From the UHGV virus genome UHGV-0021788: a stretch of 64,000 bases of DNA. One strand, 5' to 3'. Below the pieces are notes generated by a model, which made no database searches, was not told the origin of the DNA, and worked only from the letters and a program-made list of their open reading frames with translations. The stretch is from a virus. Positions 8,341-52,384 of the stretch are shown here, one piece after another (position 1 is the stretch's first letter; each line of letters starts with the position of its first letter). The position numbers and the translations under genes were made by a program.

Positions 8341-8373
8341 AATATAAAATAATAAAAAGAAAGGTGATTATAA

Positions 8374-8560
8374 ATGGCTACACTTTTTGCTATAAAAGAT
8401 GCTATAGATTTAAAAATAACTAAAAAAGGTGAACAAACAGTTTTCACTACAATAGACTATTTAAATGATTGTCAAATAGAAATGGACTCAGAACAAGTAT
8501 ATGCACTTAAAAAAGGAGATAACTACATATCATTCTCAAGTGGTAGAACAGGAATAACTT
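8374..8560 (+). CDS. Putative major tail (tube) protein, exon 1.
   Basis: AAAGGTG RBS. The frame is interrupted by the intron and resumes at 9700. Confidence 0.5.
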
Positions 8561-8771
8561 ATTAATAATAAAACGTTCCCTATGTTTGTAAAAAGCATAG
8601 CAAATCCTTTTAATTGCTGGAAACTCCTAAAGCTCAATTCACTAAAACATAATCTGAAAATGATAAGTGTGAATGTTACGAAAGTAGAAAAAAGTAATTG
8701 AGATTACCCAAGGTTAAATCCTAAAGGTGAATGAATGGACAATCAGCAGGTAAGATTTATATTTATTTTAC

Positions 8772-8800
8772 TTTACTTTTAATAATTAAATTTGTATAAT
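8772..8800 (+). promoter_or_regulatory. Intron-internal sigma-A-like promoter for the HEG: TTTACT-17-TATAAT.
   Basis: tttact, a 17-nt spacer, then tataat, followed by a GGAGGTG RBS and the ATG at 8823. The same cassette precedes the other HEGs. Confidence 0.5.
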
Positions 8801-8822
8801 ATAAGTAAATGGAGGTGGCAAA

Positions 8823-9536
8823 ATGGGAGTTATTAAATATGATTATGATTTCGTTAAAAAATATATCGAAAGTTTTAATTATAAATTATTAAGTGATTAT
8901 ATTGGTATACATGATAAAATAACATTAAAATGTCCTAAAAACCATATTTATAAAACTTCATTTAATAGTTTTTATAGTAACAACTGTAGATGTGGAAAAT
9001 GTAAAAATTTAGAAACAGCAAATAAGAGAAAATATTCAATTGAATACGTTAAAGAATATTTAAATTTATTTGGATATAAATTATTAACAGAAAACTATAT
9101 TAACAATAAACAAAAATTAAAAATAGAATGTGAAAAGGGACACATTTTCTATATGAGTTTTAGTAAATTTAAAAATGCAAAACAAAGATGTCCAGTGTGC
9201 AAAATGTCAAGTGGCGAACAAGAAATTTATAGAATATTACATAAATATTTTGATGACATTGAAATACAATATAAATTTAATGACTGTAAAGATAAAAAAA
9301 GACTTCCATTTGATTTTTATTTACCTCAATATAATTGTTGTATAGAATTTGATGGTATTCAACATTTTGAATATCAGCCACATTTTGGAACTTATTCTAA
9401 ATTTTTAAAACAGCAAAAAAGAGATGAAATAAAAACAGAATATTGTAAAAAAAATAATATAAAATTAATAAGAATAGCTTATTATGAATTTGATAAAATA
9501 GATGAAATTATAAAAAATGAATTAAAAGTAAAATAA
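8823..9536 (+). CDS. Intron-encoded homing endonuclease with a Zn ribbon and a Vsr-like/DUF559 (EDxHD-type) domain.
   Basis: CPKNH, CGKC and CPVC motifs are followed by LPFDFYLPQYNCCIEFDGIQH...IKLIRIAYYEF. Confidence 0.75.
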   Translation: MGVIKYDYDFVKKYIESFNYKLLSDYIGIHDKITLKCPKNHIYKTSFNSFYSNNCRCGKCKNLETANKRKYSIEYVKEYLNLFGYKLLTENYINNKQKLKIECEKGHIFYMSFSKFKNAKQRCPVCKMSSGEQEIYRILHKYFDDIEIQYKFNDCKDKKRLPFDFYLPQYNCCIEFDGIQHFEYQPHFGTYSKFLKQQKRDEIKTEYCKKNNIKLIRIAYYEFDKIDEIIKNELKVK

Positions 9537-9699
9537 TAAATATGAATAAACTTCAACGACTATCCCTAAATGGGAGTACACTCAAGTGGGTGGAAATGGA
9601 GGATACCTAGAAATAGGTAGTGATATAGTCTACTCTTACATGAAAATGTAAGCAGTCGAAAGACGGTATGAGATTAACGACCTCATGCGAATGTTAAGG

Positions 9700-10070
9700 C
9701 ATTGACAATGAATTGTCAAGTAATGGACGATGACTTCTTATGTATGATGCTTGGTGCTACTAAAAGTTCAGATGGTAAAATATCTGTAACATCTTCAGTT
9801 CCAAACCAAAGTTATACAGCAGAAGGTACTTTTAGAACTACTTCATTAGCTGGAGACCAATACAAAAAAATAAAATTCTACAACTTAAAAGCACAAGTTT
9901 CAGCTGACTTAACTTTATCTGCTTCTGATGTTTCTGAATTCTCATTAAAATTAGATATAATGGCAGATGATACTGGTAAAATATTAGATATAGAAAACAC
10001 TACTGGTGGTATATCTGCTGGATTTAATGAACCAGAAGTTGTTTCTATAAAAACTAAAGCTGATAAATAA
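9700..10070 (+). CDS. Putative major tail protein, exon 2.
   Basis: The frame opens at 9678. The joined product of about 186 aa is typical of siphovirus tail tube proteins. A strong terminator follows. Confidence 0.5.
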
Positions 10071-10173: not shown

Positions 10174-10728
10174 ATGATTTTTGTGGATAGATTAGCATTC
10201 ACAAGCGATTTAATCGCAGACGATATAAGATGTAAATTAAAAGTTATAAGTAAAGAGGATGGTGAACCTAGCTATATAACTGTATGGAATATTAAAGGTG
10301 AAAGAAGACAAGAAGTATTAAATGAATTAAATACTATTATGGAATTACATAATGAAGATGATGAAAAATTATTTAATATGTTTTATACTAACCTTATCTT
10401 AGAATTTACTGATTTAGTAATGGATACTGATGATGTATTATTTTTATTAAATGATAGTACATTAGCTGGAAAAATGTTAATGCAAGAATTTAATGATATG
10501 ATATATGAAATACAATATGAAATAGCTATGGATAACTTACAACAAACTAGAAATTTAGCTATGGCTTTAATAACTCAAACTGCAATAGATGAAATGAATT
10601 ATGCACAAGAAAGAGTAGACAGAGCTAAAGATAAAAGAGATAAAAATATTTTTATAGATTTAGAAAAAGAAAAAAGAGAAAAACATCTTGCCTGTAAAAG
10701 AAAAGGAAATAAAAAATATAAAAAATAG
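10174..10728 (+). CDS. Putative tail assembly chaperone.
   Basis: It sits immediately upstream of the TMP and has an acidic/basic tail. An alternative start is the GTG at 10183. Confidence 0.45.
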   Translation: MIFVDRLAFTSDLIADDIRCKLKVISKEDGEPSYITVWNIKGERRQEVLNELNTIMELHNEDDEKLFNMFYTNLILEFTDLVMDTDDVLFLLNDSTLAGKMLMQEFNDMIYEIQYEIAMDNLQQTRNLAMALITQTAIDEMNYAQERVDRAKDKRDKNIFIDLEKEKREKHLACKRKGNKKYKK

Positions 10729-10731
10729 GAT

Positions 10732-11157
10732 GTGATTGAATTGGTTTTTGATTCAATGGGACAACTAGAAGCATATGTATTAAGGGCAATGAATGATTGT
10801 GCTAAATTAAGTGCAGATAAAATGTTAGATATAATGACAGAAGAATTAGAAAATAGAGTTTATGATAATTATTCACCTAACATATATGTAAGAACAGGTG
10901 ATTTGATGAATACACCTCAAGTAATTTCTGCTAATTCAACTGGAATGCATACTGAATTTGTAGATAATGGTGGTTGGTTTAGTTTAGTAGGTGCAACAAA
11001 AGGGCAACATTTCTTTGCTTTAGAAGGATTAGAAGGTGGTCATTCTTGGGGAAGAGAAGCAACGAATGCTTACCCATTTGCTTACACTAGATGTCTTTCT
11101 GAAATACCAGATTATTATAGAAAATGTTTAGTGGCATTTGGGATACCAATAGTTTAA
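10732..11157 (+). CDS. Putative chaperone extension ORF (gpT-like). It is in the same frame as the upstream ORF and separated from it only by a TAG.
   Basis: 10174 and 10732 are in the same phase, with a single TAG at 10726-10728 between them. The position is that of the canonical G/GT pair before the TMP. Confidence 0.4.
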   Translation: MIELVFDSMGQLEAYVLRAMNDCAKLSADKMLDIMTEELENRVYDNYSPNIYVRTGDLMNTPQVISANSTGMHTEFVDNGGWFSLVGATKGQHFFALEGLEGGHSWGREATNAYPFAYTRCLSEIPDYYRKCLVAFGIPIV

Positions 11158-11191: not shown

Positions 11192-14100
11192 GTGAGCGAA
11201 TTTGATATAAGAATTGGTACGCAACTAGATACTAGTAAAGCGTTACAAGAATTAATGGAATTTGTCAAAAAATATGACAATAAAGAAAAGATAAATATAG
11301 ACATAGGTCAATCAAAAGGTGCTAATAATGTAAAGAATACAACTAAAGCTATGAAAGAAATGCAAAAAATAGCTAAGACATTAGGAAATACAAAGATTGA
11401 CGTAGGTAGTAACATAGGTAAAGCAACCAATGAAGCTACCAAATCATTAGAAAATAGTATAGATAAACAAGCCAAATCTATTGCTAAAATAACTAGTGGT
11501 GCACAAAGAGATTTAACTAAAGATGCTCAAAAGGGTATTGAAAATAGTCTTAAAGGTATTACTACAGAAATGAAGAATACCCAAAGAAATGTCGACAAGA
11601 TGATTGGTACTCTTGAACGAGCTAAGAAGGTTGAATTAATAGACCAAAAAGGTTTAGATGAAGGATTAGCTAAATTAAAAGATATGAAAGCTAACCTTAG
11701 AATAGACAATGTTGGTGATGTAGAGAAAAAATTAGGCGAAGTAGCAAATGACTATAAAAGATTAATGTCAGATGCAACTAAAGAAGCATTTAATAATGTT
11801 GAAGTATCAGGATTATTAGAGGATTTAAAAGTTGTTAGAGAAGCTATGTCAGCTAAAAACATGGACTTAACTGGTGTTGATACTTTAATTTCTAAAGCTA
11901 AACAACTTACTTCTTTAAGTGTTGACCAAATGTTAAAACAATATAAAGAGTTAAGACAAGTATTTAGTAAAGAATTAAAGATACCATTAGGTTTAAATGG
12001 TGTAATGAATGCTGAAACTGCAATTAAAAATGTTTTAGATTATAAAAACAAATTAACTGCTAAAATTTCAGTTGAAACAAATTCAGAGCAAGTAGATATT
12101 TTAAGAGATAAAATAGTAAGATGTGATGAAGTTGTTAAACAACTTGAAGGAGACTTAAATTTAGTAGGTAGAAGTACAGCATTAAACTTAATGGAACAAT
12201 CCAATGAAAGAGAATTAGATACATTAAGTGCTAAGTTAAAGAGATGTAAGAATGATTATGCTAACTTAGAAAAAGAAAGACAAAGATTAAATAGAGATAG
12301 TAGATACATTGGAACAGAAGATTTAAGTAATATAGAAAAACAATCATTAGCTATAAAGAAAGCTCTTGATAGTTTAAATATTGGAAATTTAAATACAGAT
12401 AAAATAAATAAAGTTACTGGCGATATAAATAATTTAAGAAAAACAATAGAATTAACTGGTAATTCAGCTAAAAAATTAGATATAGAAGCAACAGTTAAAG
12501 TAGATATGAAAACTGCTCAAGACCAATTAAATGGTATGTATTCTGCTTTAATAAAATCTAATAAATCTACCGTAATGGTTAAAAAATATAAAGATGAATT
12601 AGAAGGATTATTTGATTTATCTAAAACTAATCCAGGTGTAGCATTAGATAAAATAAGTGGTTTTATAGAAAAAGTAAATAAAGAAGCAAGTAATAAAGGT
12701 TTAGGTAAGATAACTGGTGGTTTAGACCAATATAAACAATATTTAAAAGATTATGAAACATTAGTTAAAAAGGCTAGTGGTACTACAGATATTGGTTTTG
12801 CAAAAGCTTACAAATCAGAAGTTACACAAATAGAAAAAGCATTAGACCAATTAGAAAGTGGATTTAATCAAACTCAAAAATCTATGGCTAAAGCTTTAAG
12901 ATTAGAATCAATTAATAAGAACACTCAAGAGTTTACTAATCAAGTTGAAAAATCTATTAAGAAAACTCAAGAATATAAAAAAGAGTTACAAACTCTTAAT
13001 AAAGATGTAAATTTTGATGGTCTTACTTCTAAATTAGGTCAAAAAGTCAAAGAAGAATTTGACGGAATGATTAACAAAACTAATCAATTAGAAAAAAGAC
13101 TTGGTAATATGTTATCATCAGGTAACATAAATACTACTGAATTATCTAAATTAAAATCAGAACTTGAAAGTACTTTTTCTGGTCTTTCTAAACTTAAAGA
13201 TACTAGTATTAAAATTAAAACTGATGAAACTATATCAGGACTTAATAAAATTAAAAAAGATTTAGAATCATTAGGTCAAGATACTAGTCAAATAGAAAGA
13301 GTTATTAATGCATTAAAACAACTTAAAGCTAATTTCAGTGGTGGTACAGCAGGTTATAAAGAATTAGCTAATGGAATAAAAGCTATTGGAAAAGATAATA
13401 ACTTGGAAAAACTAAATAGTTCTTTAGAAAAATCAACTAAAAAATTTAATAACTTAGCTAAGGTTGTTGGAGAATTAAAGGTTAAAAATATAGGAAATAT
13501 AGACCAAGGTGCTTTTCAATCTTTAGACAGTCAAGTTGCACGAATACAATCTCATATAGAAGGTTTAAATAAAAAAGATATATCTTTAATAGATGTTAAA
13601 AAGGTTGAAGCTGAAGTAAATGAATTAAGCAACTGTGTAGAAAAAACGAGTAGTGAATTAACTCAGTATAGTAGATATTTAGAAGAATATAAAAGATTAT
13701 CTAGCCAAGCAGGTAAAACAAATGATGTTAATTTAGCTACAAAATATCAACAAGAAGCAGAAGGTATAAAAGGTGTATTAACTCAATTAGAAAGCGAATT
13801 TACACAAGCTCAAAAATCTATTGCTCAAGGATTAAAAACAGATGCCTTCTCAAATGCTAATGAAAAAATGTCTTCTGAAATTAATAAAACAATTAATACA
13901 GTTGATGGTCTTAAAGAAAAACTTAATTCATTAAATAAAGATGTACATTTTGAAAATATGACATCTGAATTAGGTAAAGGATTAAATGACCAATTTAATA
14001 CTTTAACTAGTAAAGGTGAAGAATTAAAAAATAAATTAAGTAAAATATTAGCATCTGATAATGTGGATATTTCTGCTTTAAGTAAAATTAAAAAAGAAAT

Positions 14101-16323
14101 AAATGAGTTTGCAAGTGAAGTTAATAATTTAAAAAATTCTGCAATGGATAATGTTATTAGAGAATCTTTTGATAACATTAAAATACCTAATTTAAATAAA
14201 CAACTAGAAGCAGTTAAAGATTTAATGTCACTTAAAAATATGGATACTAGTGGTATAGATGCCTTAATAGAAAGAACTAAAAAACTATCAAGCTTAAGCG
14301 TAGATAAAATAGGTCAAGAATTTAAGGAAATACAAAATGCACTTGGTAAAGAAATTAATTTACGTTTAGGTACTAGTGGTATTAAAGATATAGAATCTGC
14401 ATTAAAAGTCATATTACAATATAGAAATGAATTAAAAAATAAAATAGCAGTAGAAACAGACCCATCAAAAGTAAAAGACCTTAATAGTCAATTAGAAAAA
14501 ACTGAAAGCATAATAGAAAAACTTAAAGGTCAAACAAGTAATGGGCTTGGTGCAAGTTTAATTGGTGATGCTGACAAAAACAATTTGAAACAATTAGAAG
14601 ATACTGCTGATAAATTAAAGAAAACATTCTCTAATTTAGAAAACGAAGTAAATAAATTAAACAATGAAGCATTGAATAAAGTTGACATAAGTCAATTAAG
14701 AGAAATGAATGAAGTTGTTAATGATGTAAAGAAAAATTTAGCATCTATTGGAGAAGGAAATGTTAATGTTAATTCAATAAATAAAACAGCACAAGACATA
14801 GAAAAATTAAAAGGACTAATAGAAAACACTAAAAAGACAATTAGTGATATGAAATTGGAAGTTTCATTTAATGTTAAATCAAATGAAGCAGAACAATATT
14901 TAGCAGGTTTTGAATCAGCATTATTAAGATTAGGTAAATCAACCAGTGGAATAAATGCTTTAAAGAGTGAATTTGAAAGTATAAAAAATTCAGCTAATGG
15001 AAATTTAAGTAGTGCCATAAAAATGATTGATGACTTTATTAACAAATTAAAACAAATGGGTAGTAAACAAGGCTTAGGCAACATAAGTGGTACTATGTCT
15101 CAATATAAACAATATACTAAAGAATTACAACAAGCCATGAGTGGGGCATTAAAATCTAGTGGTTCTGATACAGCTAAAGGATTTGAACAACAAGCTGAAC
15201 GAATAAAGAGTGCTATAAAACGTTTGGTTGCAAGTTTCAAAGAATCACAAAGAGAATCGGCTAATGCTTTTAATGGTAGTACATTTAGTGGTTTTTCTTC
15301 TAAATATGAAGCTGAAATAAATAAAGTTGAAAAAAGCATAAACAGATTTAAATCATCAATGCAAAACTTAGATAAAGCTGTAAACTTTAAAGGCTTTCAA
15401 ACAAATTTAGGTAAAGGTTTATCTGAAGAATTTGACCAAATAATGGCGAAAGCTGAACAATTAAGGGATAAATTAAAGAGTGCATTATCTTCTGGTACAT
15501 TTGATATAAGTGAAATAAATAGAATAAAAGATGAATTAAAACAAGTTGAACAAGAAGCAGATTCATTAAAACAAAAATCTATAGTATTAAAATGTGCTGA
15601 AAGTATAACAGAATTAGAAAGACTTAGTGGTAAGATAAAAGATATAGGTGGAGACACATCAAAAATAGAAGAATTAAAAAATAAATTTGTTACACTTGGT
15701 ACAGGTATAAGAGAAGGTACTACAGGAATAGATGATGCAATTTCTAAATTAAAATCCTTATCTTCCGAAGCACAAAGAACTGCTAGTTCTTTTGAATCAA
15801 CTACTGGTAAAATAGGTTCTTTTGGTTCTAAAATACAAGGTTTCTTTAGTTCTATAAAGAATTCATTTAGTACTTTTACTATTGGTAATTTAATGGCTGA
15901 TGGTATAAATCAAGCTGTTTATCAAATAAAAGATACTATAACAGGTTTAGATGAAGCAATGGCTGAATTTAAAAGGGTTGCTCCTGATAACTTTAGTTTA
16001 AATACATCTAATTTACAAAGTGTTGCTAATGAAGCAAGAGAAATAGGTATTAGTGTTGGACAATCAGTAGAAGATGTTATCACTGGAATGAGTACTGCAT
16101 TACAAGCAGGTGCAGGTGATATTAAAACAGCTTCTGAAATAGCTAAGAGTTCTGCTATATTCCAAAATGTTACAGATATGAGTGCAAAGGGTGCTTCAAA
16201 AGCTATTTCTTCAATGGTTAACCAATATTATGATATGGATTCAGCATTAAATCAAGTTGACCACGGTGTAGGTAAATCCGTAAAAGGGTACAACAACCTA
16301 ACCGAAGCGATGGATTTGGTAAT
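11192..16323 (+). CDS. Tail tape measure protein, exon 1.
   Basis: A long coiled-coil-rich ORF. The track's C-terminal DLPFILEII residues are intron read-through. The conserved TMP core (FSTFTIGNLMADGINQAVYQ...) lies near the exon end. Confidence 0.7.
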
Positions 16324-16595
16324 TGATTTGCCGTTTATATTAGAAATAATATAAATTATTAGAGGGCAAAATCGGTGAAGACTAAGTTTTTATAAATATG
16401 TTGATACCGAGATAACTTATTAGATTGCGAAAGGCTAATAAGTATTGTAGAGCATAGGAATTGAATAAATATAATATTCCCAAGAGTGCCCTCCATTCTA
16501 ACGTAAAAAGACGAGGATGAAAATATATGCCATACTGAGCTAGAATTGACTAGCTGATGAAAATGAGGGAAACCTCCAGAGCATAAGATAAAAAG
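16324..16595 (+). mobile_element. Intron-like element, class 2 (ORF-less, about 270 nt), inside the TMP gene.
   Basis: Noncoding in all frames. It shares attgccgt...attagaggg...atcggtgaag.ctaagt...ataccgag...tctaacgt.aaa...tgaaaatatatgc...ataaaaaG with the element at 17397-17750. The flanking exon ends are similar (gaagc.at.g.tggtaat). Confidence 0.55.
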
Positions 16596-16629
16596 CTTAT
16601 GGATAATAACAATAGAAATTACGCTGGTT
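16596..16629 (+). CDS. Possible 34-nt TMP mini-exon between two introns, encoding (I)LWIITIEITLV. This is uncertain.
   Basis: It is the only frame that bridges exon 1 (phase 2+1) to the next exon at 17010. The alternative is a composite intron spanning 16324-17009. Confidence 0.3.
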
Positions 16630-17009
16630 AGAATTAGCCAGGCTATATGGAAACATGTAGTACAAATCTCTTTTGAATTGCTGGAAAGGACTTAGAGCCT
16701 ATTGAACTACAACGTAGATGGAAACATCAAGCGTGAATGTTTAAAAATCAATAGGATTGTTTAATCAGCAGGTAAGATTCTAAGTAATAATTTTATATTA
16801 TTATATGAATAAACTTCAACGACTATCCCTTGGATGTTGAAATACATCAATAGGAGTACGGCTCAAGTGATTGGAGTGGGTGAGAATCCCTTAAATGGAA
16901 GTGGAAGAGGACTTATAAAGGTTCAAGATATAGTCTACTCTCGTAGGAAATCTACGAGCAGTCCTTTTTTGGACGGTATATGTGTAGCGAACATATATGA
17001 ATATTAAGG
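16630..17009 (+). mobile_element. Group I intron, class 1, ORF-less, inside the TMP gene.
   Basis: P at 16676-16687, Q at 16763-16772, R at 16814-16825, S at 16926-16935. Only about 40 nt separate Q from R, where the other copies carry a promoter and HEG. The 3' end reads tgaatattaaGG. Confidence 0.75.
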
Positions 17010-17396
17010 AATAACTTTGCGATTTCATCTGATGGTGTAACAGAAGCATTACAACGTGGTGGTTCTGTATTATCTAACTATGGAGTAGATTTAAAAGATT
17101 CTATTGCAATGATAACTGGGGCAAATGAATCTTTACAAGACCCCGCTCGTATAGGTAATGGTTTAAAATCTATAGCAATTAACCTTTCAGGTATTAAAAC
17201 AAATGCAAAAACAGGTGCTCTTGAATTAAATAAAACAGCAAAAGCATTGCAAGAAACTGCTAAGATAGATATATTTACTGATAGTACTAAAACACAAGTT
17301 AAAGATGTTGTTACTATAATGGATGAAGTAAAAGATAAATGGGCTTCTTTAACTGATGTTGAACAAAAAGGATTGTCAGAAGCTATAGCTGGTAAT
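17010..17396 (+). CDS. Tail tape measure protein, exon 3.
   Basis: The frame opens at 17001. It contains the conserved TMP core (NNFAISSDGVTEALQRGGSVLSNYGVDLKDSIAMITGANESLQDPARIGNGLKSIAINL). The track's ORF at 17109-17402 is the same frame. Confidence 0.65.
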
Positions 17397-17750
17397 ATGT
17401 AAGATTAGTAAATTTATATAAATTTTTATAAAATACAAAAATCTTAAAATTGCCGTCTTTGATAGAAATATTAAAGATAATTAGAGGGATGTATCGGTGA
17501 AGCCTAAGTCGAAAGATATGGTAATACCGAGGGTATCTTAACAGAGAATATCCGTAACGCATAGGGAGTGAGCGATATTGTTAGCAATAACCTCCCCACG
17601 AGCTTCCTCCACGATTATATATAGGATAATCACTTATAGATGTTGCTACTATAAGTTCTAACGTTAAACGAGAGTGAAAATATATGCTGGACTTATGAGA
17701 AATCATAAGAAGTGGATGTGTGAATCGACACACTATTAATAGATAAAAAG
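17397..17750 (+). mobile_element. Intron-like element, class 2 (ORF-less), inside the TMP gene.
   Basis: A paralog of 16324-16595. It is noncoding. The downstream frame opens at 17748, so exon 3 joins exon 4 at a codon boundary. Confidence 0.55.
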
Positions 17751-20700
17751 CTCCACGATAACAAATCGAAAACCCAAGCCGGTGTATTCCAAGCATTGAT
17801 GACAGGTTGGGAAAGAGTTCGTCAATTCCAAAAAGAATACAATGAAGGTTGGATGATAGGTTCAGCCCAAAGAGAAAATGAAATCTTTATGGATTCCATT
17901 GCTGGTAAAATGAATACTTTAAAAGAAAATCTTAAAGGATTATTAACTAGCAATGTTACAACAGATATGTTTAAAGGTCTATTAGATGGTGCTAATAAAG
18001 TAGTAGAAGCAGTAGGAAAAATAAGTTCAAGCTTAGGTAAAATTGGTTCAGCTGGTGCTTTAGTAGGTATTTCATCTTTCGTAAAAACTTTAGCAAATTT
18101 GGATAAAGCTAAAACAATAGGTGGTGGTTTTACAGGATTTGATAAAGTTTTAGAAGTAATACAAGGTACTGCTGTTACTTCTTCTGGTGAAATAAAAACA
18201 CTAGGCGATAGTTTTAAAGAATTAGGTGTTAAGACAACTCTATCTAAAGTAGCATTAGGATTATTTAAAGGTGTATTAATGGGTATTGCATTTACTGCTG
18301 TTGTTAAAGGAATAGATGCTATGGTAAAAGCATGGGATAATTATATTCATGCAACAGAAAATGCAGTAAAGGCTTCTAAGGAAAGACAAGATGGATTTAG
18401 AGATGAAGCACAAACATTAAGTACTAAAAAATCAAGTCTACAAGAAATAGCTAAAGAATATGATAATTTAAATAATAAATCTGATAAAACTGCTGAAGAT
18501 TTAACTAGATTAAATGAATTAAAACAACAAATAGGACAAATAGCTCCTGACCTTGTTAAAGGATATGATTCAGCAGGTAATCCAATATTAAATCTTACTA
18601 CTAGTATGCAAGGTTATATAGCTGAATTAGATAAAGCAATTGCTAAACAACGAGAATTATATAATTATGAAACTAAAAAACAAGCACAAGAATACATGAA
18701 GAAAAATGACACTAAAAATGGTGCTCAAGACCCAGATAGGAATTCTTATGAAACTGAATTAAATCATCTTCAAAATGCAAATGATAGAAAAACTAGAGAA
18801 GAAAAAAGATATACTGGTAGCTTAAAAAATATTATTAAAGATAGAAATAAATATAGAGAAGACCAAGAAAAAAGCATTAATGAAAGATTAGAAAGGATTA
18901 GAAACGCACAAACAGAAGTTAATAATAGAGATGCTACAATTGAAGATAATTATGTTAACGAATTTAATAAGAAAACCAAATTAGCTGAAAAAGAACAAAA
19001 TAAATTTGCTACCTTTATGAAAGGGTTAAATTGGGGTACTTATGGCGAAGCAGAAGCCAATAGAATGTCTAAAGGTTTACAAAAATTATCTGAAAAGACT
19101 GCATTCACAACTCAAGAGATGACAAAAGGATTATCAGGTAGTCTATCAAAAAAAGTTTCAGAAGAAATTTCTAAAGTAAATGCAGAATTCAAAAAAACAA
19201 ATGCTGTAAATGAATGGGGAAAAGGTTTAAGAAAAATAGCTAATGAAACAGGAAAATTTGATTTTTCAAATTGGAGTAATTACTTATCAGAAGTTCAAAC
19301 TCGTTTTGAACAAGGAGTAAGTACTAATGAACAATATACACATTCATTAGGAATTATGGCTGATGCTATGGAAGATTTAACTGGTATAGATTCAGATGTA
19401 TTCTTACCAGCTTTAAAAGGTGGAGCAGATTTAGAAGAAGCCTTTAAATCAGCAACTGAAGGCTTAAATGGTTTTATGAGTGCTTATGGTTCTTCTACTG
19501 CAAAATTACAACAAGGTGATTCATTTGCTAAAAAATTAGAATCTCAATTTAAAGAACTTCAAAATTTTGAAACTGAATTTGAAGGTCAATATGAGATGCA
19601 AGGTAAAGTTAGTGTAGATTGGTTAGTAGAACAAAAAGATAATGAAGATTTACCTAAGCAATTAAGAACTATAATAGATGCAGTAACAAAAGATGGAGAA
19701 GTAACAGAAGTAGAAGAAAAATTAGTATTAGCTTGTGAAACAGAAATAAAAGATAAAGGTAAATTAGAACAAAGCACAATAGATGCAATAAATCAAGTTA
19801 TGGATGGAACATGGGATGTAAATAAAACTATTGAAATAGGTGGTATGGAATTTACATCATCTGAAATAAGAGAATTAATGTCATTGGCAGACCAATTAGG
19901 TATATCTTTAGAAGGTTTAAATATTGGTGATACAGGATTAGAAGGAGAAAATCAAAAAGCTCAAGCATTAAAAGATACAATAGATTCAATTACAGATAGA
20001 GATATAAAAGTAGCAATAGAAGCAGAAGGATTTGAGAATTCAGACCAAGTTAACAACATAATGACAGTTATTGACCAAATAGATGGAAAACAAGCCAAAG
20101 TCGATTTTATAGCAGATGCTTCTCAATACTTTATGGAAAATGATAGTGTTGAATCAGCAATAAAAGCTATGCCTGATGAAATAAAACTTAAATATAATAT
20201 TGGTGTTGAAGGCGATGAAAGACTAGAAGGAATACAAAGTAGACTTGAAAAATTACCAAAAGATATTAGAACTATGGTATATGCTCAAACATATGGTGTT
20301 GAAAATGTTGAAATGCTAGAAAACATAGTAGATGCTTTTGGTGGAAAAACTGCAACAGCAATATTACAGTTAGATGGTATAGATGAAGCTCTTAGAAATG
20401 CTAGTACATTTGAGGAACAATTAAAAATAATTGGAGATTTTATATGTCAACCTGGAGTAGAAATAGAAGGTAAAGATGACATAATTAAAACAATTGATGA
20501 AATATTAAAGAAATTAAAAGAAACAGATGAAAAAGAAAGTAATCCTAAAATAAATGTAGAAGGAGATACTTCTGGTGCAGAGAAAGTAGAAAAAGAAGTA
20601 GACAATGTAGGCAATAAAAAAGGTACTGCTAAAGCAGATGTGGATGGAGATACTTCTGGTGCAGAGAAAGTAGAAAAAGAAGTAGACAATGTAGATGGTA

Positions 20701-23700
20701 AAGAAGGTACTGCTAAGACAAAAATAGAAGGAGATACTTCTGGAGCTGAAAAAGTAAAGAAAGAAGTAGATAATTTAGCTGTCAACAAAAAAGGTACGGT
20801 TACTTTATTAGTAAATGGTCAAGAAAAAATAGCTGAAGCTAAAGTTGTCAAAGGTCAATTAGAAGTAGATGGTAAAGCAGTTACAAGTATTTCTGTTAAT
20901 GGTAAAGACCAATTACCAATAGCTATTAATGAAAAAGGTCAATTAGAAGTAAATGGTCAAGCTATAACTGATGTAACTGTAAAAAATGGAGACCAATTAA
21001 AATTAACAAGAAATGAAAAAGGTCAATTAGAAGTAAATGGTCAAGCTATAACTGATATCAAGGTATATGGGAAAGAAAATGTTAAAGATGCAAAAAAAGA
21101 TGTTGATGATTTAACCAAAGATAATAAAAATGTTAGTATTAACATTGATGTTTCATTAAAAGAAACTGTTGGTGAAATATTATCAAGATTTGGATTAAAT
21201 AAGAAAACAGAAAATGTTGAAATTAATGTAACATGTAATGATAATGCAACTCCAGTATTAGAAAAAATAATGGCAAGACAAGATAAAACTATACAAATAA
21301 AAGTAGACTGCCAAGATAATGCAACATCTAAAATAAACAGTATAGCTAAAATAGGAAATAAAACTGTAACAGTTACAATAAATTGTCAAGATAATGCAAC
21401 ATCTAAAATAAACAGTATAGCTAGTATGGGTAATAAATCTGTAACAGTTACAATAAATTGTCAAGATAATGCAAGTTCTACAATAAATAGAGTTACAAGT
21501 GCACCTTCTTCTAAAGCAATAAATGTTGTAGTAACTTGTACAAATGGTGGAGCAGTTCTTAATACTCTTTCTCAATTAGCTAGTAAAGTAATACCTAGTA
21601 AAAAATTTACTATAAACTGTACAGATAGTGCTAGTAGTGTAGTAAGTAGAGTTAATGGTTTAAAAATATCTGATAAGAAATTTACTATAAATTGTACAGA
21701 TAATGCAACTGCTAAAATAAATAAAGTTATTAGTAAAAAAATACCAAATAAATCATTTACTATAAGTTGTACTGATAATGCTAGTAGTAAATTAAGTAGT
21801 ATTATAAGTAAAATAAGTAATATTCGTAGTAAATCAGTAACAATTACTACTAATCATGTAAGCACAGGCGACCATTCATCTGTTGGTGAACCAACAATTG
21901 TTGATTTACAACCTCAACCATTTAGTAGTACTCAAGCTTCTAATCCTCAAGTGCAATCATTAGGAGAACAAGTTCAAGTATTAAGCGATAGTGTGCAACA
22001 ACAAACTGACAACAATAATGAAGTTAGCGTAATGGCTAAGAAAACATATAAAGCTAATATTGATACAGGTTTAACAGTAAGTGCAGTTAAATATAATATT
22101 GATTTATTAACTAACATGACTAATATGCTTAAAAAATTAGGAACTCAAGTTGATATATTAAAAGCTAAACAAGAAAGAACTTGGGGTACTGCAAGTGCTA
22201 AGTTACTTAGAAATCAAATTTCTTTACTAACTAAACAACAAGATTTAACTAAAATAAATATTAAAAACATGGAAGGTATGGCTAAAAAACTTAAAGGTAG
22301 TTTACAAAAACAAGGATTTAAGTTTAAAGATGATGGAACTATAAGTAATTACAATAGTAAGCTTATAAAAATGCAAAAAAATGTTGAAAGTTTAGAGAAA
22401 GCTGAAAAAGCACTAGAAGACCAAATAAGTAAAACTGAAAAACAAATTTCAAAATCTGAAAAGAAATCTTCAAGTAAGAAGAAATCAACTAGTAAGAAAA
22501 AGAAAAGTACTAGTAAGAAAAAGAGTACGAGCAAAAAGAAGAAAACTTCAAGCAAGAAGAAATCAACTAAGAAAAAGAGCACTAAGAAGAAAACTACTAA
22601 GAAGAAGAGTGCTAGTAGAAGCAATAGAAAAACTACATCAAGTAAAGCTAGTAAAAAGAAGACTACTAAGAAGAAAAAATCAACTAGTAAGAAAAAAAGT
22701 ACATCAACTAAGAAGAAGAGTACTAAAAAGAGTACTAAAAAGAAGACTACTTCTAAGAAGAAATCAACCACTAAGAAGAAAAGTACATCTTCAAGCAAGA
22801 AATCAAAAGCAACTAAAGCATTAGAAAAGAAAAAGAGCGGATTAGAAAAGAAAAAGGATGCAATAAGCAAACAATTAGAAAAAGCACAAAAAGAATTATC
22901 AGAAACTCAAAGCAAATTAAATGAATATTATAATTTACAATTTAGTGAAATTCCTGAAGCTCAACAACAATGGGAAGAATATGCTAATGCTATAGCAGAA
23001 GCTAAGGCAGAAATAATTAGATGTGAATTAGAAGCTAAAACATTCTTTAAGACAGTTAAGATGGAAATGAAAGATGCTATGATTAGCAGAAATGAAACTT
23101 GGGCAGATACATTTATGTTGAAGGCTGATTTAAGTAGTTGGTCTAAAGCAATAGGATATATTAAAGAAGCTAATAAATTATTAGCAAAAAATCAACAACA
23201 TCAACAATCAAAATTAGAAACAGCTCAAGCAAGAGCAGAAGATAACAAGGCATTTTTAAAGAAACAAGGATTTAAATTTGATAAAAATGGATATGTAACA
23301 GGTGCTGAAAAAACTTTACAAAAACTTAAAAAGAAGAAATCATCACAAGAATATGATGCTATAAAAGAAGCATTTGATAGTTATGTTGATGATATGTATG
23401 AAAATATTCCCAAAGCTGAAAATGAATGGTGGAAATTAGAACAGGAAATAAAAGAAAATGAAAGACAAATAAAAGAAACTACTAAATCTATGAATGATTT
23501 AGTTAATTCAGCTAAAGTAGATAAATTAACTAGACAATTTGATGTACTTTCAAATACTTTAGATATATTAGACCTTAAAATGGAACGTGCTTATGGAGCT
23601 AATAAAATAGACTATATGAAACAACAACTTGATATATTATCTAATATGAAAAGTAAGAATCAAGAAATCATTAATCAAAATACTGAGTTATTAAATAATA

Positions 23701-24611
23701 GTAAGAAACAATTAGTTAAATATGGCATTACATTTGATGAAGATGGCAATATAGACAATCTATCAAAAGCATTGAAAAAATTAGATAATCTACAAGATAT
23801 GGAAGATTTAAAAGATTTAGCTGATGAATATAATGATTATAAAGATTCAATAGATGATGCTAGTAAATCAATTGAAGAAGAAACTAATAAACAACTTGAA
23901 TTAAAAGATTCAATGATGGAAATTAGAGAAGAAATGAGAAAACTTAGAGATGATGCATGGGTTAAAACTTATGAAAATGGTCTAAAAGTTATTCAAAATC
24001 GTATTGATACAATAGATTCTTTATTAGATTTAGAAGATGAAAATCAATTTAGTTTACTAAATCAAAAAATTGAAGAATATAAGAATTTAACTAAAGCGAC
24101 TGAGGATAGTTTGGCTTATCAAAAACATAGAAAAATCACTATGCAAAAAACATTGATTGATTATGGTTTCACTATTAATGATGATGGTACAATAGATGGA
24201 ACTGCTAATAAATTAGAACAACTTAAAAATACATTATCTGAAACTGAATTTGGTATAGTAAGTGATACATTAGAAGATTATTTTGATACTGCTTTAGATA
24301 CAATTCCTGAATTAGAAAGAGAATTAATAAAATATCAAAAAGATTTAAAAGATATACAAAATACTAAACTAGAAAAGACTAAAACTATTGAAGAAAAAAT
24401 TACTGAAATATATAACGATGAAATAGATAAAAGAACTAAAAAGATACAAGAAGAAGCAGAAGCACAAACTAAAGCACTTAATAAAGCCAAAGAATCTTAT
24501 CAGAGATGGAGAGACGAAGTTGACTATAAAGATGATTATAATAAACAATTAAAAACTGTTGAAGATTTACAAAAGAAAATAGAAATAGCAAAACGAGATG
24601 ACAGCCTAACT
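17751..24611 (+). CDS. Tail tape measure protein, exon 4. It contains hydrophobic segments, tandem peptide repeats and a lysine/serine/threonine basic tract.
   Basis: Continuous frame from 17748 to 24611. Internal tandem repeats lie at about 20560-20775, 20826-21065 and 21306-21500. The lysine/serine/threonine tract lies at about 22456-22815. Confidence 0.65.
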
Positions 24612-24825
24612 GGGTAATGTTGCCCTAGTCGTAAAGTAATTTGCGACTGAAAATAGATTTAATTGCAGGTAATCCCTAAAGCTCTACACCACAATATATC
24701 TGAAAAGAATATATGAAGGTACGAAAGTAGAAAAAACGTAGAGATTCTCATATGGTTAAATCCTAAGTGAGAGTAACAATGGGTGTTCATGCAAGGAAGA
24801 TTCTAAATTAAATTATTTTAAATAT

Positions 24826-24854
24826 TTTACTTTTAATAAAATAAGCAGTATAAT
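24826..24854 (+). promoter_or_regulatory. Intron-internal promoter for the HEG: TTTACT-17-TATAAT.
   Basis: -35-like tttact, a 17-nt spacer, then tataat, followed by an AAGGAAGGGG RBS and the ATG at 24878. Confidence 0.45.
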
Positions 24855-24877
24855 ATAAATAAGGAAGGGGTGAAATT

Positions 24878-26002
24878 ATGAAAACTAAGTGGACAAAAGA
24901 AGCAATAATAAAATATATAGAGGAACAAGATTATATTTTTATAAATTTTATAAAATTTGATAAATTAAGCTCAAGAATATTAATAAGATGTAATAATAAA
25001 AAGCATAAACCATATGAAGTTACTTTTGCTAATTTCAAAACTGGGAAAAGATGTCCAAAATGCAGTGAAATAAAAAGAAGAAAAAAAAGAACAATATGGA
25101 ATAAAGAAAAAATAATTGATTTTGTAGAAGATAATAACTATGAATTTATTGAATTTGTTAAATTTGATAAAATTGAAAGTATAATTAAGGTATGGTGTAA
25201 AAATTTAAAACATGAACCATATAATGTTAAATTTGCAAATTTTAAAAATGGACAAAGATGTAGAAAATGTTCTGATGAAATAAAAAGTAAAAAATTTTCG
25301 CATAATTATGAATATGTCAAAGAATATATTGAATCATTTGGATATAAAATGTTATCAAACGAATATATAAATTTACATAGCGAAATAAAAATATTATGTG
25401 ACAAACATGGGATATATAAGACAACATTTCAATTATTTAAAATGGCGAAATATAAATGCCCAAAGTGTTCGGATGAACATAGAGGAGAATATCATAAATT
25501 AAATTATGAATATATTAAAGAATATATTGAATCATTTGGATATGAAATATTATCAAATGAATATATAAATATGAAAACAAATATATTGGTAAAGTGTCCA
25601 AATGGTCATAAATCATATTTTACTAATTTTGATAGGTTTAAAAGAGGAGACAGATGCCCTTATTGTAACGAATCTAAAGGTGAGAAAAAAATTAATGAGA
25701 TTTTAAATAAATATAATATGAATTTTAAATCACAATATAAATTTAATAATTGTAAAAGTAAAAGAGAATTACCATTTGATTTTTATATATCTGATTTAAA
25801 TATAGCGATAGAATATGATGGAATACAGCATTATAAAATAATAGAATATTTTAGTGGACTTGATGGTTTCATAACCACTAAAATACATGATGTTATAAAA
25901 ACAAGATATTGTGAAGATAATAATATAAAATTAATTAGAATACCGTATTGGGAATATGATGATATAGAAAGTATATTAATAAAAGAACTTAATTTAAAAT
26001 AA
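24878..26002 (+). CDS. Intron-encoded homing endonuclease with four Zn-ribbon modules and a Vsr-like/DUF559 domain.
   Basis: Repeated W.K..II.F.E...Y.FI.F.K......I...C modules, with CPKC repeated three times. The C-terminal part reads LPFDFYISDLNIAIEYDGIQH..IKLIRIPYWEY. Confidence 0.75.
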   Translation: MKTKWTKEAIIKYIEEQDYIFINFIKFDKLSSRILIRCNNKKHKPYEVTFANFKTGKRCPKCSEIKRRKKRTIWNKEKIIDFVEDNNYEFIEFVKFDKIESIIKVWCKNLKHEPYNVKFANFKNGQRCRKCSDEIKSKKFSHNYEYVKEYIESFGYKMLSNEYINLHSEIKILCDKHGIYKTTFQLFKMAKYKCPKCSDEHRGEYHKLNYEYIKEYIESFGYEILSNEYINMKTNILVKCPNGHKSYFTNFDRFKRGDRCPYCNESKGEKKINEILNKYNMNFKSQYKFNNCKSKRELPFDFYISDLNIAIEYDGIQHYKIIEYFSGLDGFITTKIHDVIKTRYCEDNNIKLIRIPYWEYDDIESILIKELNLK

Positions 26003-26177
26003 TTTAACATGAATAACCTTCAACGACTAGAATGCGAATTCGTAGGGTGTAAGTGATTGACACTCGAAAAGGTCTACCCTTAATATTAAGGTGAAGAAAT
26101 AGTCTAGTCTCATATGAAAGTATGAGCAGTTCATAAGAGAACGGTATATGTTTAGCGAACATATATGAATATAAGCG

Positions 26178-26795
26178 CAAAAACGTTTAGCTGATTTGAT
26201 GAAGGAATTAAAAGAAGAACAAGAAAATCTTGAAGATTTAGTTCAAGACAAAATAGATTCGGATATAAATAACATGTTTGATGACCAAATAGACAAGATA
26301 GAAGAAAATTCTGATGAAGAAGTTAAGAATTTGGAAAAAACATGGTCAGAAAGCAAAATAGCTGAAATGGTTAAACAAGCACTCGATACTGGAGTCTTTA
26401 CAGATATTGATGGAAATATCAAAACTCTTCAAACAGCATTAATGGATTTTGCTAATACAAGTTCTGATTATTTTGGAGTTATGGGTAGTTCATTAAAGAA
26501 AGAATTATTAGACAATCTTAATGTAGCATTGGAAACTATGAAAGAACTTCAAAAAATGTCAGATAATTATACAGCTCCTAATATAGATTATAGTAATACG
26601 GTACTTCCAAAAGATAGTACTATTAATACTTCTCCACAAGTTTCTAGTAATGTTGAAACTAATAATATTACAATTGGAGATACAAATATTACAATTCAAG
26701 GTAGTGCAGATAATGTTACTTTAGGAAAAGTAGATGAAATGTTAAAAGATTACAAAGCAAGTATTTGTAAGGAAATTGTTAAAAATATGAAATAA
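26178..26795 (+). CDS. Tail tape measure protein, terminal exon.
   Basis: The frame opens at 26175. The join reads ...KRDDSLT/QKRLADLMKELKEEQ... A terminator follows. Confidence 0.55.
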   Translation, partial: QKRLADLMKELKEEQENLEDLVQDKIDSDINNMFDDQIDKIEENSDEEVKNLEKTWSESKIAEMVKQALDTGVFTDIDGNIKTLQTALMDFANTSSDYFGVMGSSLKKELLDNLNVALETMKELQKMSDNYTAPNIDYSNTVLPKDSTINTSPQVSSNVETNNITIGDTNITIQGSADNVTLGKVDEMLKDYKASICKEIVKNMK

Positions 26796-26802
26796 ATTTA
26801 CG

Positions 26803-26840
26803 AAGGAAGGGTTAAAATATAACTCTTCCTTCTTATTTTA
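26803..26840 (+). terminator. Rho-independent terminator after the TMP gene.
   Basis: gaaggaagggtt-aaaatat-aactcttccttc followed by ttatttta. Confidence 0.5.
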
Positions 26841-26871: not shown

Positions 26872-27582
26872 ATGGCAAAGCCTGATTATTTAAAATTTAA
26901 AATATGTAGTACTTGTAAAAACATATTGCATATAAGTAAATTTAATAAAAATAAAAAATGTAAATATGGGGTTTCATCTCGATGTAGAGAATGTGATAGA
27001 AAATATCATAAAAAATATTATGAGAATAATAAAGAAAAAATAATAGAAATAAATAAAGAATATTATAAGGATAATAAAGAAAAAATTTTAGAATATCATA
27101 AGGAATATTATGAAGACAATAAAGAAGAAATCTATAAAAGAACAAGACAATATGCAATTGATAATAAAGAGAAATCTAATGAATATAAAAGAAAATATAA
27201 AAAAAATAATCCTGATAAAATATTTAATGATAGTATAAAAAGAAGATTAAATGAAAAAACACAAGGTAACGGAATCACTAAAGAACAATGGTATGAAATG
27301 ATGAAATTTTTTGATTGGAAATGTGCTTATAGTGGAGAATATATAGGTGGAAATAATGATAATAGAACCATAGACCATATTGTACCTTTAAACAATAGTG
27401 GAGAACATGAAATTTGGAATTGTGTACCTATGTATCAACCTTACAACAGTGGGAAACGTGATAGAAATATGTTAGAATGGTATTTAAAACAAGAATATTT
27501 CTCAATAGAAAAATTAACTAAAATATATGAATGGAGAATATATGCATATAATAAATGGGGTGATGATATAAATGGCAAGTAG
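26872..27582 (+). CDS. Free-standing HNH endonuclease with an N-terminal Zn finger.
   Basis: CSTC...CREC motif, a KEYY repeat, and DHIVPLNNSGEHEIWNCVP..N (the HNH motif). Confidence 0.7.
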   Translation: MAKPDYLKFKICSTCKNILHISKFNKNKKCKYGVSSRCRECDRKYHKKYYENNKEKIIEINKEYYKDNKEKILEYHKEYYEDNKEEIYKRTRQYAIDNKEKSNEYKRKYKKNNPDKIFNDSIKRRLNEKTQGNGITKEQWYEMMKFFDWKCAYSGEYIGGNNDNRTIDHIVPLNNSGEHEIWNCVPMYQPYNSGKRDRNMLEWYLKQEYFSIEKLTKIYEWRIYAYNKWGDDINGK

Positions 27583-28354
27583 TTTTTGGAATGGTAGCTT
27601 TTATTTCAATAATGTATATTCTGAAACTTTCAATGTTGTAATAATTGATTTTGATAGTTCGGATAGACTAAAACAAATAGGAAGTACAATTAATATAGAA
27701 TTAAATGAAGAAAATACACTTAATGGAAAAAAGAGTTATATTGAAGGAACTCGCACTTCTGAAAATATAATTTTACAATTAATGAAAAAAAATGGTGATA
27801 TATGGAGTGATGGAGATATAATCAATGTATATAATTGGTTATTCCAAAAAGATTTTAAAAAATTCCAAACAGTAGATTATTCTAGTGGATATAATCTATG
27901 TTATTATTTAAAAGCAGTAAGTTTTTCAAAATTTTTAACTCCTGATTTTAGGGGTTATTTAGAAATAGAATTTATGAGTTATGCTCCTTATTGCTATTCT
28001 ATACCAACAAACAGACTTAGTTTGAGTGCCAATGGTCAATCAGGTGTTTTATTTAATTATAGTAATCTATATGAAACATATAAACCAAAAATTAAAATAA
28101 CTGCTTCAAATAGTGATAGTATTAAAATATTAAATAATACAAATGGTACTTTTGTAGAATTAAGTGGATTAAACAATGGAGAAATGGTTACGGTAGATTG
28201 TGCTATGGGAACTGTAATAAACAGTGGTGGAGCTAATAGATTTGAAACATTAAAAAATTATAATTTATTAGAATTAGATAAAGGAAATAATAATATAACA
28301 CTTACTGGAAGTGCAAATATAGAATTTATTTGCGAATTTCCTGTAATTATATAG
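27572..28354 (+). CDS. Distal tail protein (Dit, siphovirus tail family).
   Basis: About 260 aa. It directly follows the TMP and has a beta-rich Dit-like composition. The start overlaps the end of the HNH gene. Confidence 0.5.
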   Translation: MASSFWNGSFYFNNVYSETFNVVIIDFDSSDRLKQIGSTINIELNEENTLNGKKSYIEGTRTSENIILQLMKKNGDIWSDGDIINVYNWLFQKDFKKFQTVDYSSGYNLCYYLKAVSFSKFLTPDFRGYLEIEFMSYAPYCYSIPTNRLSLSANGQSGVLFNYSNLYETYKPKIKITASNSDSIKILNNTNGTFVELSGLNNGEMVTVDCAMGTVINSGGANRFETLKNYNLLELDKGNNNITLTGSANIEFICEFPVII

Positions 28355-50223: not shown

Positions 50224-50245
50224 ATAAGTAAAGTGAGGTGATAAA

Positions 50246-52361: not shown

Positions 52362-52384
52362 ATAAGTAGAGTGAGGTGATAAAT

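Follow-up and report, generated by a model that had tools for sequence, protein, structure and literature searches.

The published accounts that we consulted describe no more than three group I introns in any one phage gene, and ask why they reside mainly in genes of DNA metabolism (PMC11878797). Those of T4 (td, nrdB, nrdD) and of the SPO1 and Bastille DNA polymerase genes (PMC3984707) combine a ribozyme core with an endonuclease open reading frame (ORF) in a peripheral loop, introduce an early in-frame stop, lie where an essential gene is most conserved and show presence/absence polymorphism; introns of this type are found almost only in genes of DNA and nucleotide metabolism, usually one to three per gene (PMC11878797). 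The locus described here, positions 11192-26795 on the + strand of a 64,000-nucleotide (nt) stretch of the virus genome UHGV-0021788 (the window), shares this design, but in this case a structural gene is the hotspot, and its endonuclease is a PHROG 559 member that carries zinc-ribbon repeats. It very probably constitutes one late structural gene, the product of which is a TP901-family tape measure protein (TMP), 4,329 amino acids (aa) in length and encoded by five exons that are separated by four group I introns.

The closest cultured homologue of the TMP core (43-47% identity) belongs to the Clostridioides phages phiCD211 / phiCDIF1296T, temperate siphophages of 131 kb (NC_029048.2), for which RefSeq lists two 'tail length tape measure protein' coding sequences (CDSs; 541 and 2,176 aa) parted by an Intron_gpI feature. 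This gene carries the same class-A intron motifs as the window. An earlier, sequence-only reading of the window had stated that an intron-mosaic TMP gene has no close precedent, a claim that does not hold given the intron-split phiCD211 entry and the distant SPbeta-like TMPs that are split at AIAG|K (vertical bars mark splice junctions). The phiCD211 TMP is nonetheless shorter (about 2,700 aa versus 4,329 aa), with one annotated intron, or two as we infer, versus four in the window; these interrupt the gene elsewhere (in window numbering, about aa 1755-1768), and neither has an annotated ORF. In addition, phiCD211 is cultured and 131 kb in size, whereas the relatives of the window are uncultured contigs of 147-204 kb. 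The phiCD211 region 9409-9998 (L015), with its single annotated Intron_gpI (locus 9720-9985), looks like a pair of introns, one of class A (9409-9696) and another ending ...UUAAAG, which apparently flank a 33-nt mini-exon (GAAAAAGTAGGTACAGCACTCAAAACAATTGGT) encoding EKVGTALKTIG. We found no open-access discussion of a phiCD211 TMP intron; PMC5786514 and PMC4543499 name these phages without mention of one.

Among other described systems, the tail tube gene orf142 of Staphylococcus phage Twort has three group I introns, genes of Bastillevirinae have up to three, and exon skipping in orf142 is reported in a passage of the same paper that cites Landthaler and Shub 1999 (PMC11878797). The present gene differs in having four introns, and up to seven in relatives, in encoding a TMP and not a tube protein, and in its 13-nt exon, none being reported for orf142; splicing of the Twort gene was shown experimentally, whereas here we infer it. 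The Thermus phages P74-26 and P23-45 are siphoviruses with extreme tails and giant TMPs, a combination predicted for the window phage as well; at about 5,000 aa their TMP is longer than that of the window, and they are unrelated thermophilic Gram-negative phages for which no intron-split TMP has been reported. The large siphovirus SPbeta, a Bacillus prophage, also has a long TMP, YomI, of about 2,285 aa with cell-wall hydrolase domains, and to our knowledge this TMP is not intron-split; a Pfam scan detected no hydrolase domain in the window TMP. Modules of the more distant TMP relatives match the Pfam families YomU_Tube, YonB, YomW, YonD_N and YomN, and by its sequence the host element appears to be an uncultured SPbeta/phiCD211-like siphovirus of low guanine-plus-cytosine (GC) content. 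The novelty of this locus is one of degree. It lies in the four introns, which fall into two classes, in the 13-nt exon that two ribozymes enclose, in the numbers reached among close relatives (as many as seven introns, ten sites) and in the length of the TMP, 4,329 aa. The intron load is unusually heavy for one viral gene.

The five joined + strand segments comprise 12,990 nt and 4,329 codons with only one stop, which is terminal. Exon 1 (11192-16320; 5,129 nt) begins with GTG, preceded by the Shine-Dalgarno-like motif GGTGG, and specifies residues 1-1709 together with two bases of codon 1710; it contains a duplicated N-terminal extension (~790 aa) that is predicted to be helical, and then the first half of the TP901-type core. 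Mini-exon 2 (16616-16628; 13 nt, A AAT TAC GCT GGT) finishes Val1710 and adds N-Y-A-G. Exon 3 (17010-17393; 384 nt, aa 1715-1842) encodes the second half of the TP901/PhageMin_Tail core, matches PF10145 on its own (E 2.8e-12) and ends ...LSEAIAG. Exon 4 (17769-24614; 6,846 nt, aa 1843-4124), the end of which is uncertain by one codon (24611 or 24614), encodes the post-core region, in which a single hydrophobic segment is accompanied by modules in tandem repeat, a tract rich in K/S/T and helical repeats of ~150 aa. Exon 5 (26178-26795; 618 nt with the stop, aa 4125-4329) is collinear with contiguous TMP reading frames of two relatives (L008 and L004). The spliced core reads ...AMDLVNYAGNNFAISSDGVTEAL... 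and ...LSEAIAGKTQAGVFQALM..., and the peptides predicted to span the joins are GYNNLTEAMDLVNYAGNNFAISSDGVTEALQR (junctions 1 and 2) and GLSEAIAGK (junction 3).

This spliced core matches TIGR01760 with 68.5 bits (cutoff 28.8; profile positions 18-332 of 349) and PF10145 with 73.1 bits (cutoff 33.2; positions 2-201 of 201) across the junctions. Without splicing, the + strand breaks into ORF pieces at 11192-16354, 17109-17402, 17796-24617 and 26196-26795, with a 374-aa ORF in the last gap, and these could be viewed as separate proteins of 1,720, ~100, 2,273 and 199 aa: ORF callers list the pieces apart, GenBank holds the phiCD211 TMP as two CDSs, and database relatives are stored as fragments ending inside introns. 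Separate proteins are nevertheless exceedingly improbable. The first ORF would stop in the middle of the TIGR01760/PF10145 domain, which is complete only when spliced, the downstream pieces are listed from in-frame TTG or ATG codons with no convincing start contexts, the gaps contain group I ribozyme cores, and close relatives are uninterrupted across every break. The sequence-only reading had proposed a single giant TMP gene, some 4,300 codons long and divided among five exons, whose core lies on both sides of the first intron cluster, and that proposal is borne out by the open 4,329-aa frame, by both profile matches and by the intron-less alleles.

These alleles came from two IMG/VR scans, which returned 14 loci on seven contigs, six of them 147-204 kb in length and from sample 3300045988. 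All seven contigs encode the same protein in frame at ~90-97% identity, with different interruptions. Locus L009 (contig 159628) is uninterrupted over aa 1-1754 and lacks introns 1 and 2; at the DNA level its GATTTAGTGAATTATGCTGGCAATAAT aligns with no gap to the spliced window, GATTTGGT|AAATTACGCTGGT|AATAAC. Locus L008 (contig 163643) is uninterrupted over aa 1755-4198 and reads GCTGGAAAAACCCAAGCC at junction 3, again with no gap. The window is itself uninterrupted at sites where these two contigs hold introns, and from such complementary gaps it follows that all 4,329 codons are bridged by at least one uninterrupted allele. The separate inserts are not a product of chance: contigs that lack a given insert are collinear with zero gaps at junctions 1-3. 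The end of exon 1 is fixed by L009, and the boundaries of exon 3 by L009 and L008 together; intron-less Peptostreptococcus TMPs (P0008, P0009) and other metagenomic homologues are also gap-free across junctions 1-3, and the NYAGNN of the mini-exon region is kept in the intron-less TMPs P0008, P0009 and P0016.

The same alleles bear on the coordinates given by the sequence-only reading, in which exon 1 ended at 16323 (here 16320), the mini-exon was 34 nt long (16596-16629; here the 13 nt of 16616-16628, as in L009), exon 3 ended at 17396 (here 17393) and exon 4 ran from 17751 (here 17769) to 24611 (here most likely 24614, from the intron-less alleles). Six of its eight internal boundaries were thus off, and the exon 3 start at 17010 and the exon 5 start at 26178 were correct. 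Its phases are indeed consistent: the frame is kept over 4,343 aa with a single stop, the 5' exons end in U and the introns in G, and 24611 is the only choice with a canonical U before intron 4. Yet the product gains ILWIITIEITLV and NLHDNKS inside the conserved core, the TIGR01760 match is lost and the PF10145 score drops by 22 bits, to 50.7 from 73.1. At junctions 1-3 the intron-less alleles agree with the corrected joins at every base, and the additional 21, 3 and 18 nt have no place in them; the homology between introns 1 and 3 continues past the 3' splice sites of that model, and at junction 4 it drops a Gly codon present in both intron-less alleles. We consider these coordinates scarcely credible as the true ones.

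Group I signatures were recognized in all four introns, and homology joins introns 1 and 3 on the one hand and introns 2 and 4 on the other, in agreement with the two classes that had been proposed. Introns 1 (16321-16615; 295 nt, terminal G 16615) and 3 (17394-17768; 375 nt, terminal G 17768) are ORF-less and of class A, and intron 2 (16629-17009; 381 nt, terminal G 17009) is ORF-less and of class B, all on the + strand. A sensitive search of 16250-17850 with the Rfam model RF00028 (gathering score 50 bits) gave 37.1 bits for intron 1 (E 1.8e-7; match 16302-16553), 68.9 bits for intron 2 (E 5.3e-17; 16619-16958), above gathering, and 28.2 bits for intron 3 (E 8.5e-5; 17435-17709). An Rfam scan of the whole 64-kb window with default filters at the gathering threshold returned no match, which we regard as a filter artefact because intron 2 reaches 68.9 bits when the 1.6-kb segment is searched. 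As the case of intron 2 (16619-16958) illustrates, low-GC phage introns can drop out at Infernal speed filters.

The 5' splice sites of introns 1-3 were set after the U of the P1 U·G wobble, and for each of the three this U as the last exon base is combined with a terminal G. P1 of intron 1 (UUGGU|AA..UUGCC) consists of G16318-C16332, G16319-C16331, U16320·G16330, A16321-U16329 and A16322-U16328; that of intron 2 (CUGGU|U..AGCCAG) of C16624-G16642, U16625-A16641, G16626-C16640, G16627-C16639, U16628·G16638 and U16629-A16637; and that of intron 3 (GCUGGU|AA..UUGCC) of G17391-C17454, G17392-C17453, U17393·G17452, A17394-U17451 and A17395-U17450, closing a loop of ~54 nt. Introns 1 and 3 are 72% identical, and intron 3 is homologous to intron 1 through ...GATAACAAATCG; the homology reaches ...AACAAUAG| and ...AACAAAUCG|, 20 and 18 nt past the 3' ends of the sequence-only reading. 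Among five class-A introns from four sources, including phiCD211, 14 of the 39 predicted pairs show compensatory double changes. In-frame stops follow the 5' splice sites within 0-11 codons (16352-16354, UAG at 16629, 17400-17402 and UAA at 24615-24617), as is known from phage group I introns (PMC3984707). Inteins in place of introns were ruled out by the stop codons in the exon frame and by the RNA folding of the inserts.

At the nucleotide level, the 3' half of intron 2 (window 16838-16962) is 80-86% identical to several sites in the Bacillus jumbo phages AR9, PBS1, Goe21 and Internexus, and intron 1 (window 16328-16611) is 76% identical to replication-module sequence of the human-gut 'uncultured phage cr6_1'. 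When the locus was compared with phage genomes by megablast, only short intron matches came up (AR9, PBS1, Goe21, cr6_1), with no close cultured relative at the DNA level.

Intron 4 (24615-26177, + strand; 1,563 nt) was assigned by comparison with its relatives. Its P1 consists of G24612-C24625, G24613-C24624, G24614-C24623, U24615·G24622 and A24616-U24621, and it shares with intron 2 the P3/P7 motifs and a 40-nt 3' end, the last 40 nt being almost identical. At the same site, L011 and L012 hold an insert of ~375 nt (374 nt in L012) that is nearly identical to 24615-26177 except for a 1.2-kb ORF segment, and this ORF-less orthologue in L012 scores 59.7 bits with RF00028, above gathering. The score and the near-identity together identify the window intron 4 as a group I intron of class B that harbours an endonuclease gene in one of its peripheral loops. 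The intron is missing from contigs 163643 and 156249, so that site 4124 is represented by two intron-less and five intron-containing alleles.

In the relatives, the intron always ends ...ATAAACG|CAAAAACG, which sets the conserved terminal G at 26177 and the start of exon 5 at 26178. Across the junction the two intron-less alleles read ACTGGA|CAAAAACG, and in contig 163643 the intron-less site, the presumed target of the endonuclease, is ...TTAACTGGACAAAAACGTTTAGC.... Exon 4 most likely ends at 24614, judging from sequence, because this is the sole placement that keeps the frame, the protein length and the terminal G; its product has the same length as those of the intron-less alleles, and the predicted join 24614|26178 gives ACTGGGCAAAAA and the peptide DDSLTGQK. 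The join 24611|26178 (ACTCAAAAA, predicted peptide DDSLTQK) has the canonical U but loses the Gly codon. Three other placements were rejected. With U24615 as canonical U and the 3' splice site at 26177 (+1 product ACTGGGTCAAAAA), the frame is shifted and closes at a stop five codons on; placing the 3' splice site later in the sequence (UUUAG|) removes QKRLA, which is conserved at the nucleotide level in the intron-less alleles; and a junction at 24615|26176 (...TGSQKR; DDSLTGSQK) would rely on G26175, which is A in all relatives and is not the terminal G. The ambiguity at junction 4 alters the protein by at most one residue.

A G (or C) before the splice site, with the P1 wobble U as first base of the intron, is implied by intron-less alleles for four class-B introns, namely intron 4 of the window and those at sites 4198, 1705 and 4084 in relatives (window 24612-24625 and 26170-26180; L008 17970-18325; L012 16800-18200). 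All class-A introns and three class-B introns follow the canonical U|...G rule. From these sequences it is conceivable, if somewhat doubtful, that the class-B introns of this lineage include natural group I ribozymes that cut one base upstream of the P1 wobble U. If true, splice sites of the canonical and the non-canonical kind would exist as a natural series within one ribozyme lineage, housed in a gene that would be a ten-site battleground for the spread of introns and endonucleases between co-circulating phages.

The identity of the protein as a TMP is supported beyond the core. The N-terminus SEFDIRIGTQLD (SEFxI..LD) aligns with the N-termini of ordinary Peptostreptococcus TMPs, and the gene stands in the canonical TMP slot, as it is followed by a Dit-like gene (27572-28354, +; phrog_33 'distal tail protein Dit', E 2.5e-13) and a minor tail or Tal-like gene (28366-30051, +; phrog_6211 'minor tail protein', E 2e-116). 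Residues ~100-800 are duplicated at ~890-1590 with 26-34% identity, and the C-terminal 1,100 aa are made of repeats of ~150 aa; it is evidently by duplicating its own helical modules that the gene became so long. The N-terminal extension (window 11489-15960, aa ~100-1590) is a tandem of a ~790-aa module with a sub-period of ~315 aa; the Peptostreptococcus TMPs (720-811 aa) have a far shorter region ahead of the core. The sequence-only reading had listed coiled coils and hydrophobic segments; aa 100-520 are predicted, at modest confidence, to be ~88% helix (AlphaFold2, single-sequence; pLDDT 64.5), and one strongly hydrophobic segment (aa ~1999-2030) was recovered.

At 0.13-0.16 nm per residue, and with an extended helix assumed throughout, the protein would correspond to a tail of ~560-690 nm; the customary value of about 0.15 nm per residue would put it at roughly 0.55-0.65 µm, and the sequence-only reading had proposed 600 nm or more. 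To call such a tail 'among the longest' is plausibly fair, and to call it 'the longest' is not. The longest known tail is that of P74-26, at almost 1 µm (PMC10034513).

Several observations weigh against this interpretation of a spliced gene for a very long tail ruler. Splicing itself is deduced from sequence comparison; introns 1 and 3 fall below the Rfam gathering score; and a search of 24500-26300 gave no group I match to the window intron 4, because the 1.1-kb ORF splits its ribozyme. With exon 4 ending at 24614, the exon also closes on a G where a U is canonical, and the intron opens with the wobble base U24615. With respect to tail length, the AlphaFold2 model is of low-to-moderate confidence, the middle of the protein (aa ~2,600-3,300) has beta-like short tandem repeats of non-helical look, and a low-complexity K/S/T tract of ~120 aa (KKKSTSKKK...) occupies aa ~3405-3525 (window ~22455-22817); in these regions the nm-per-residue factor may fail. 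The K/S/T tract coincides with an AT-skew peak of 0.42 at 22001-23000.

The modest Rfam scores of introns 1 and 3 and the non-canonical base before the intron 4 splice site, along with the fact that all of the sequences derive from metagenomic assemblies, would also be compatible with a decaying pseudogene in a defective element, with dead introns and no full-length TMP. We give this explanation very little credence. The five exons are open and in phase over 13 kb at 27% GC, the protein is kept in frame at ~90-97% identity on seven contigs that differ in their intron sets, the ribozyme helices show compensatory changes, and the same intron classes occur in the TMP gene of phiCD211, a named phage that has been isolated and whose genome record is complete. 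It is likewise highly unlikely that the product is a giant tail or ejection protein of several domains which has a TMP-like core but does not act as a length ruler, so that its length would reveal little about the tail. In favour of this view, only ~350 of the 4,329 residues match the TMP model, and the middle has non-helical-looking repeats and the basic K/S/T tract; this is nevertheless the sole TMP-like gene in the canonical slot between tube/chaperone genes and Dit/Tal, its N-terminus is homologous to those of ordinary TMPs, and in long TMPs a small conserved core is typically all that accompanies the repeats (PMC3271669, PMC13585406). A spliced TMP gene is the reading that we retain.

The relatives of this gene differ widely in the introns that they carry. 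Whereas the window has four (sites aa 1710, 1714, 1842 and 4124), contig 163643 has four at other sites (aa 1705, 1754, 4198 and 4229), contig 159628 has five (aa 1754, ~1767, 1842, 4124 and 4198), contig 152729 has six (aa 1710, 1714, ~1768, 1842, 4124 and 4198) and contig 160472 has seven, the six sites of contig 152729 plus 4084. The ten intron sites form two clusters, one in the conserved core (aa 1705-1842), the other in a C-terminal stretch (aa 4084-4229) that is conserved as well, and the AIAG|K site of intron 3 is also occupied in L009, L011, L012 and the distant L018. Variable intron sets, conserved sites and versions with and without an ORF indicate that the introns are mobile and probably spread by homing, perhaps also by reverse splicing into ..GGU-like sites. 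The idea that the relatives are recombinants was rejected as an artefact: composition-based statistics in tblastn and blastp dropped ~1,700 aa of exon 4 homology, a loss caused by the K/S/T tract, and with the composition adjustment off, exon 4 is 90.7% identical to the L012 exon over its full length.

More distant SPbeta-like contigs (L017, L018, L019; up to 127 kb) have TMP cores that are 44-50% identical to that of the window. In L018, a class-A-like intron at AIAG|K (2481-2818) divides the distant TMP into 606 and 1,920 aa. Three database proteins (P0015, P0016, P0018) end a few residues past AIAGK because gene callers read into the intron. Species-representative genomes gave matches only to two Bacilli MAG (metagenome-assembled genome) contigs, L020 (112 kb) and L021 (3 kb). 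The first of these (JAEDGC010000002.1, 'Bacilli bacterium' MAG) encodes a TMP core of 71% identity that shows no interruption within core residues 1-221, and faintly hints at a Bacillota host; the contig itself looks phage-sized.

In the mechanism that we propose, the primary transcript would hold four self-splicing group I introns, two ORF-less of class A and two of class B, one with an endonuclease gene. Ribosomes on unspliced RNA would drop off at the in-frame stops before reaching the ribozyme core, and splicing would join the five exons into an uninterrupted TMP core. The 3' end of the 13-nt exon would form P1 of intron 2 (five pairs). The introns would be mobile, with homing and reverse splicing directed to conserved essential sequence, a preference known for both homing endonucleases and reverse splicing. 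The size of the protein would stem from internal duplication of helical modules and would set a tail of ~0.6 µm.

Such an arrangement would have consequences at several levels. The 13-nt exon would serve both ribozymes, providing P1 for the downstream intron and the 3' exon, a potential P10 partner, for the upstream one; this would constrain folding and the order of splicing, and exon skipping, which causes a frameshift, would be a measurable risk. Near-identical phages with four to seven introns, in versions with and without ORFs, would form a natural system for the study of homing, of intron gain and loss, and of competition between strains. If the ruler relation holds, a tail of ~0.6 µm, among the longest for any phage, would have been reached by duplication of large helical modules. 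For annotation, gene callers cut the gene into at least four ORFs and databases hold fragments that end in introns; automated surveys are therefore blind to the giant TMPs in this group of phages and to the tail lengths implied by them.

The putative homing endonuclease of intron 4 is encoded by the 374-aa ORF at 24878-26002 (+), which has its own ribosome-binding site, AAGGAAGGGG, upstream of the ATG. It matches phrog_559 (E 1.1e-75), as well as phrog_9084 'homing endonuclease' and phrog_7140 'intron encoded nuclease'; its PHROG label is 'HNH endonuclease', and Pfam gives only zinc-ribbon/CapR modules (CapR, DUF4379 treble-clef), with repeated zinc-ribbon modules at the N-terminus. A search of solved structures by sequence found no meaningful homologue of this protein. 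The ORF is lacking from the otherwise identical intron of L011 and L012, and the same intron thus exists with and without it.

The window has ~27% GC and its long ORFs are almost all on the + strand. Upstream of the TMP gene, two small ORFs (184 and 141 aa; 10174-11157, +) occupy the tail assembly chaperone position, from which their function is suggested; the second matches phrog_11057, of unknown function. In relatives, SPbeta-type YomU_Tube and YomN genes lie upstream of the TMP, and in L017 and L018 the ORF just upstream weakly matches PF27376 YomN. Directly after the TMP stop is a terminator-like hairpin (26802-26832, +) with a 13-bp stem and then a T run, which is weak evidence of a terminator, as the total count in the scan was not above shuffled expectation. 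The interval from this hairpin to Dit is taken up by a free-standing HNH/endonuclease VII-like gene (26872-27582; phrog_1035, E 8.7e-33), which overlaps the start of Dit by 11 nt. An exact-sequence look-up of the window Dit protein returned no record. Very large fibre genes also lie downstream of the TMP gene.

Outside the TMP gene, the window contains at least five further class-B-type group I introns (~1-600, ~3028-4490, ~8341-9701, ~49990-51300 and ~52200-53450), which with those of the TMP gene brings the number in the 64-kb window to at least nine. The motif TTCAACGACTA lies directly 3' of the PHROG-559 endonuclease ORFs at 3261-4187, 8823-9536, 50246-51160 and 52376-53299, and also occurs at 522; the 5' motif AATTGCNGGNAA, at 3068, 8612 and 50026, precedes three of the four ORFs. 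One of these introns splits a phrog_4088 gene, with 2563-3027 matching profile positions 4-146 and 4491-4913 matching 198-331, and another lies between 7516-8340 and 9702-10070 in a virion structural or tube-like gene. A phrog_9915 gene is also in two parts, 53705-56380 (profile 16-852) and 57986-61396 (profile 870-1531), with a phrog_314 homing endonuclease ORF (56520-57230) between the halves; this insert is probably another intron or a free-standing endonuclease insertion.

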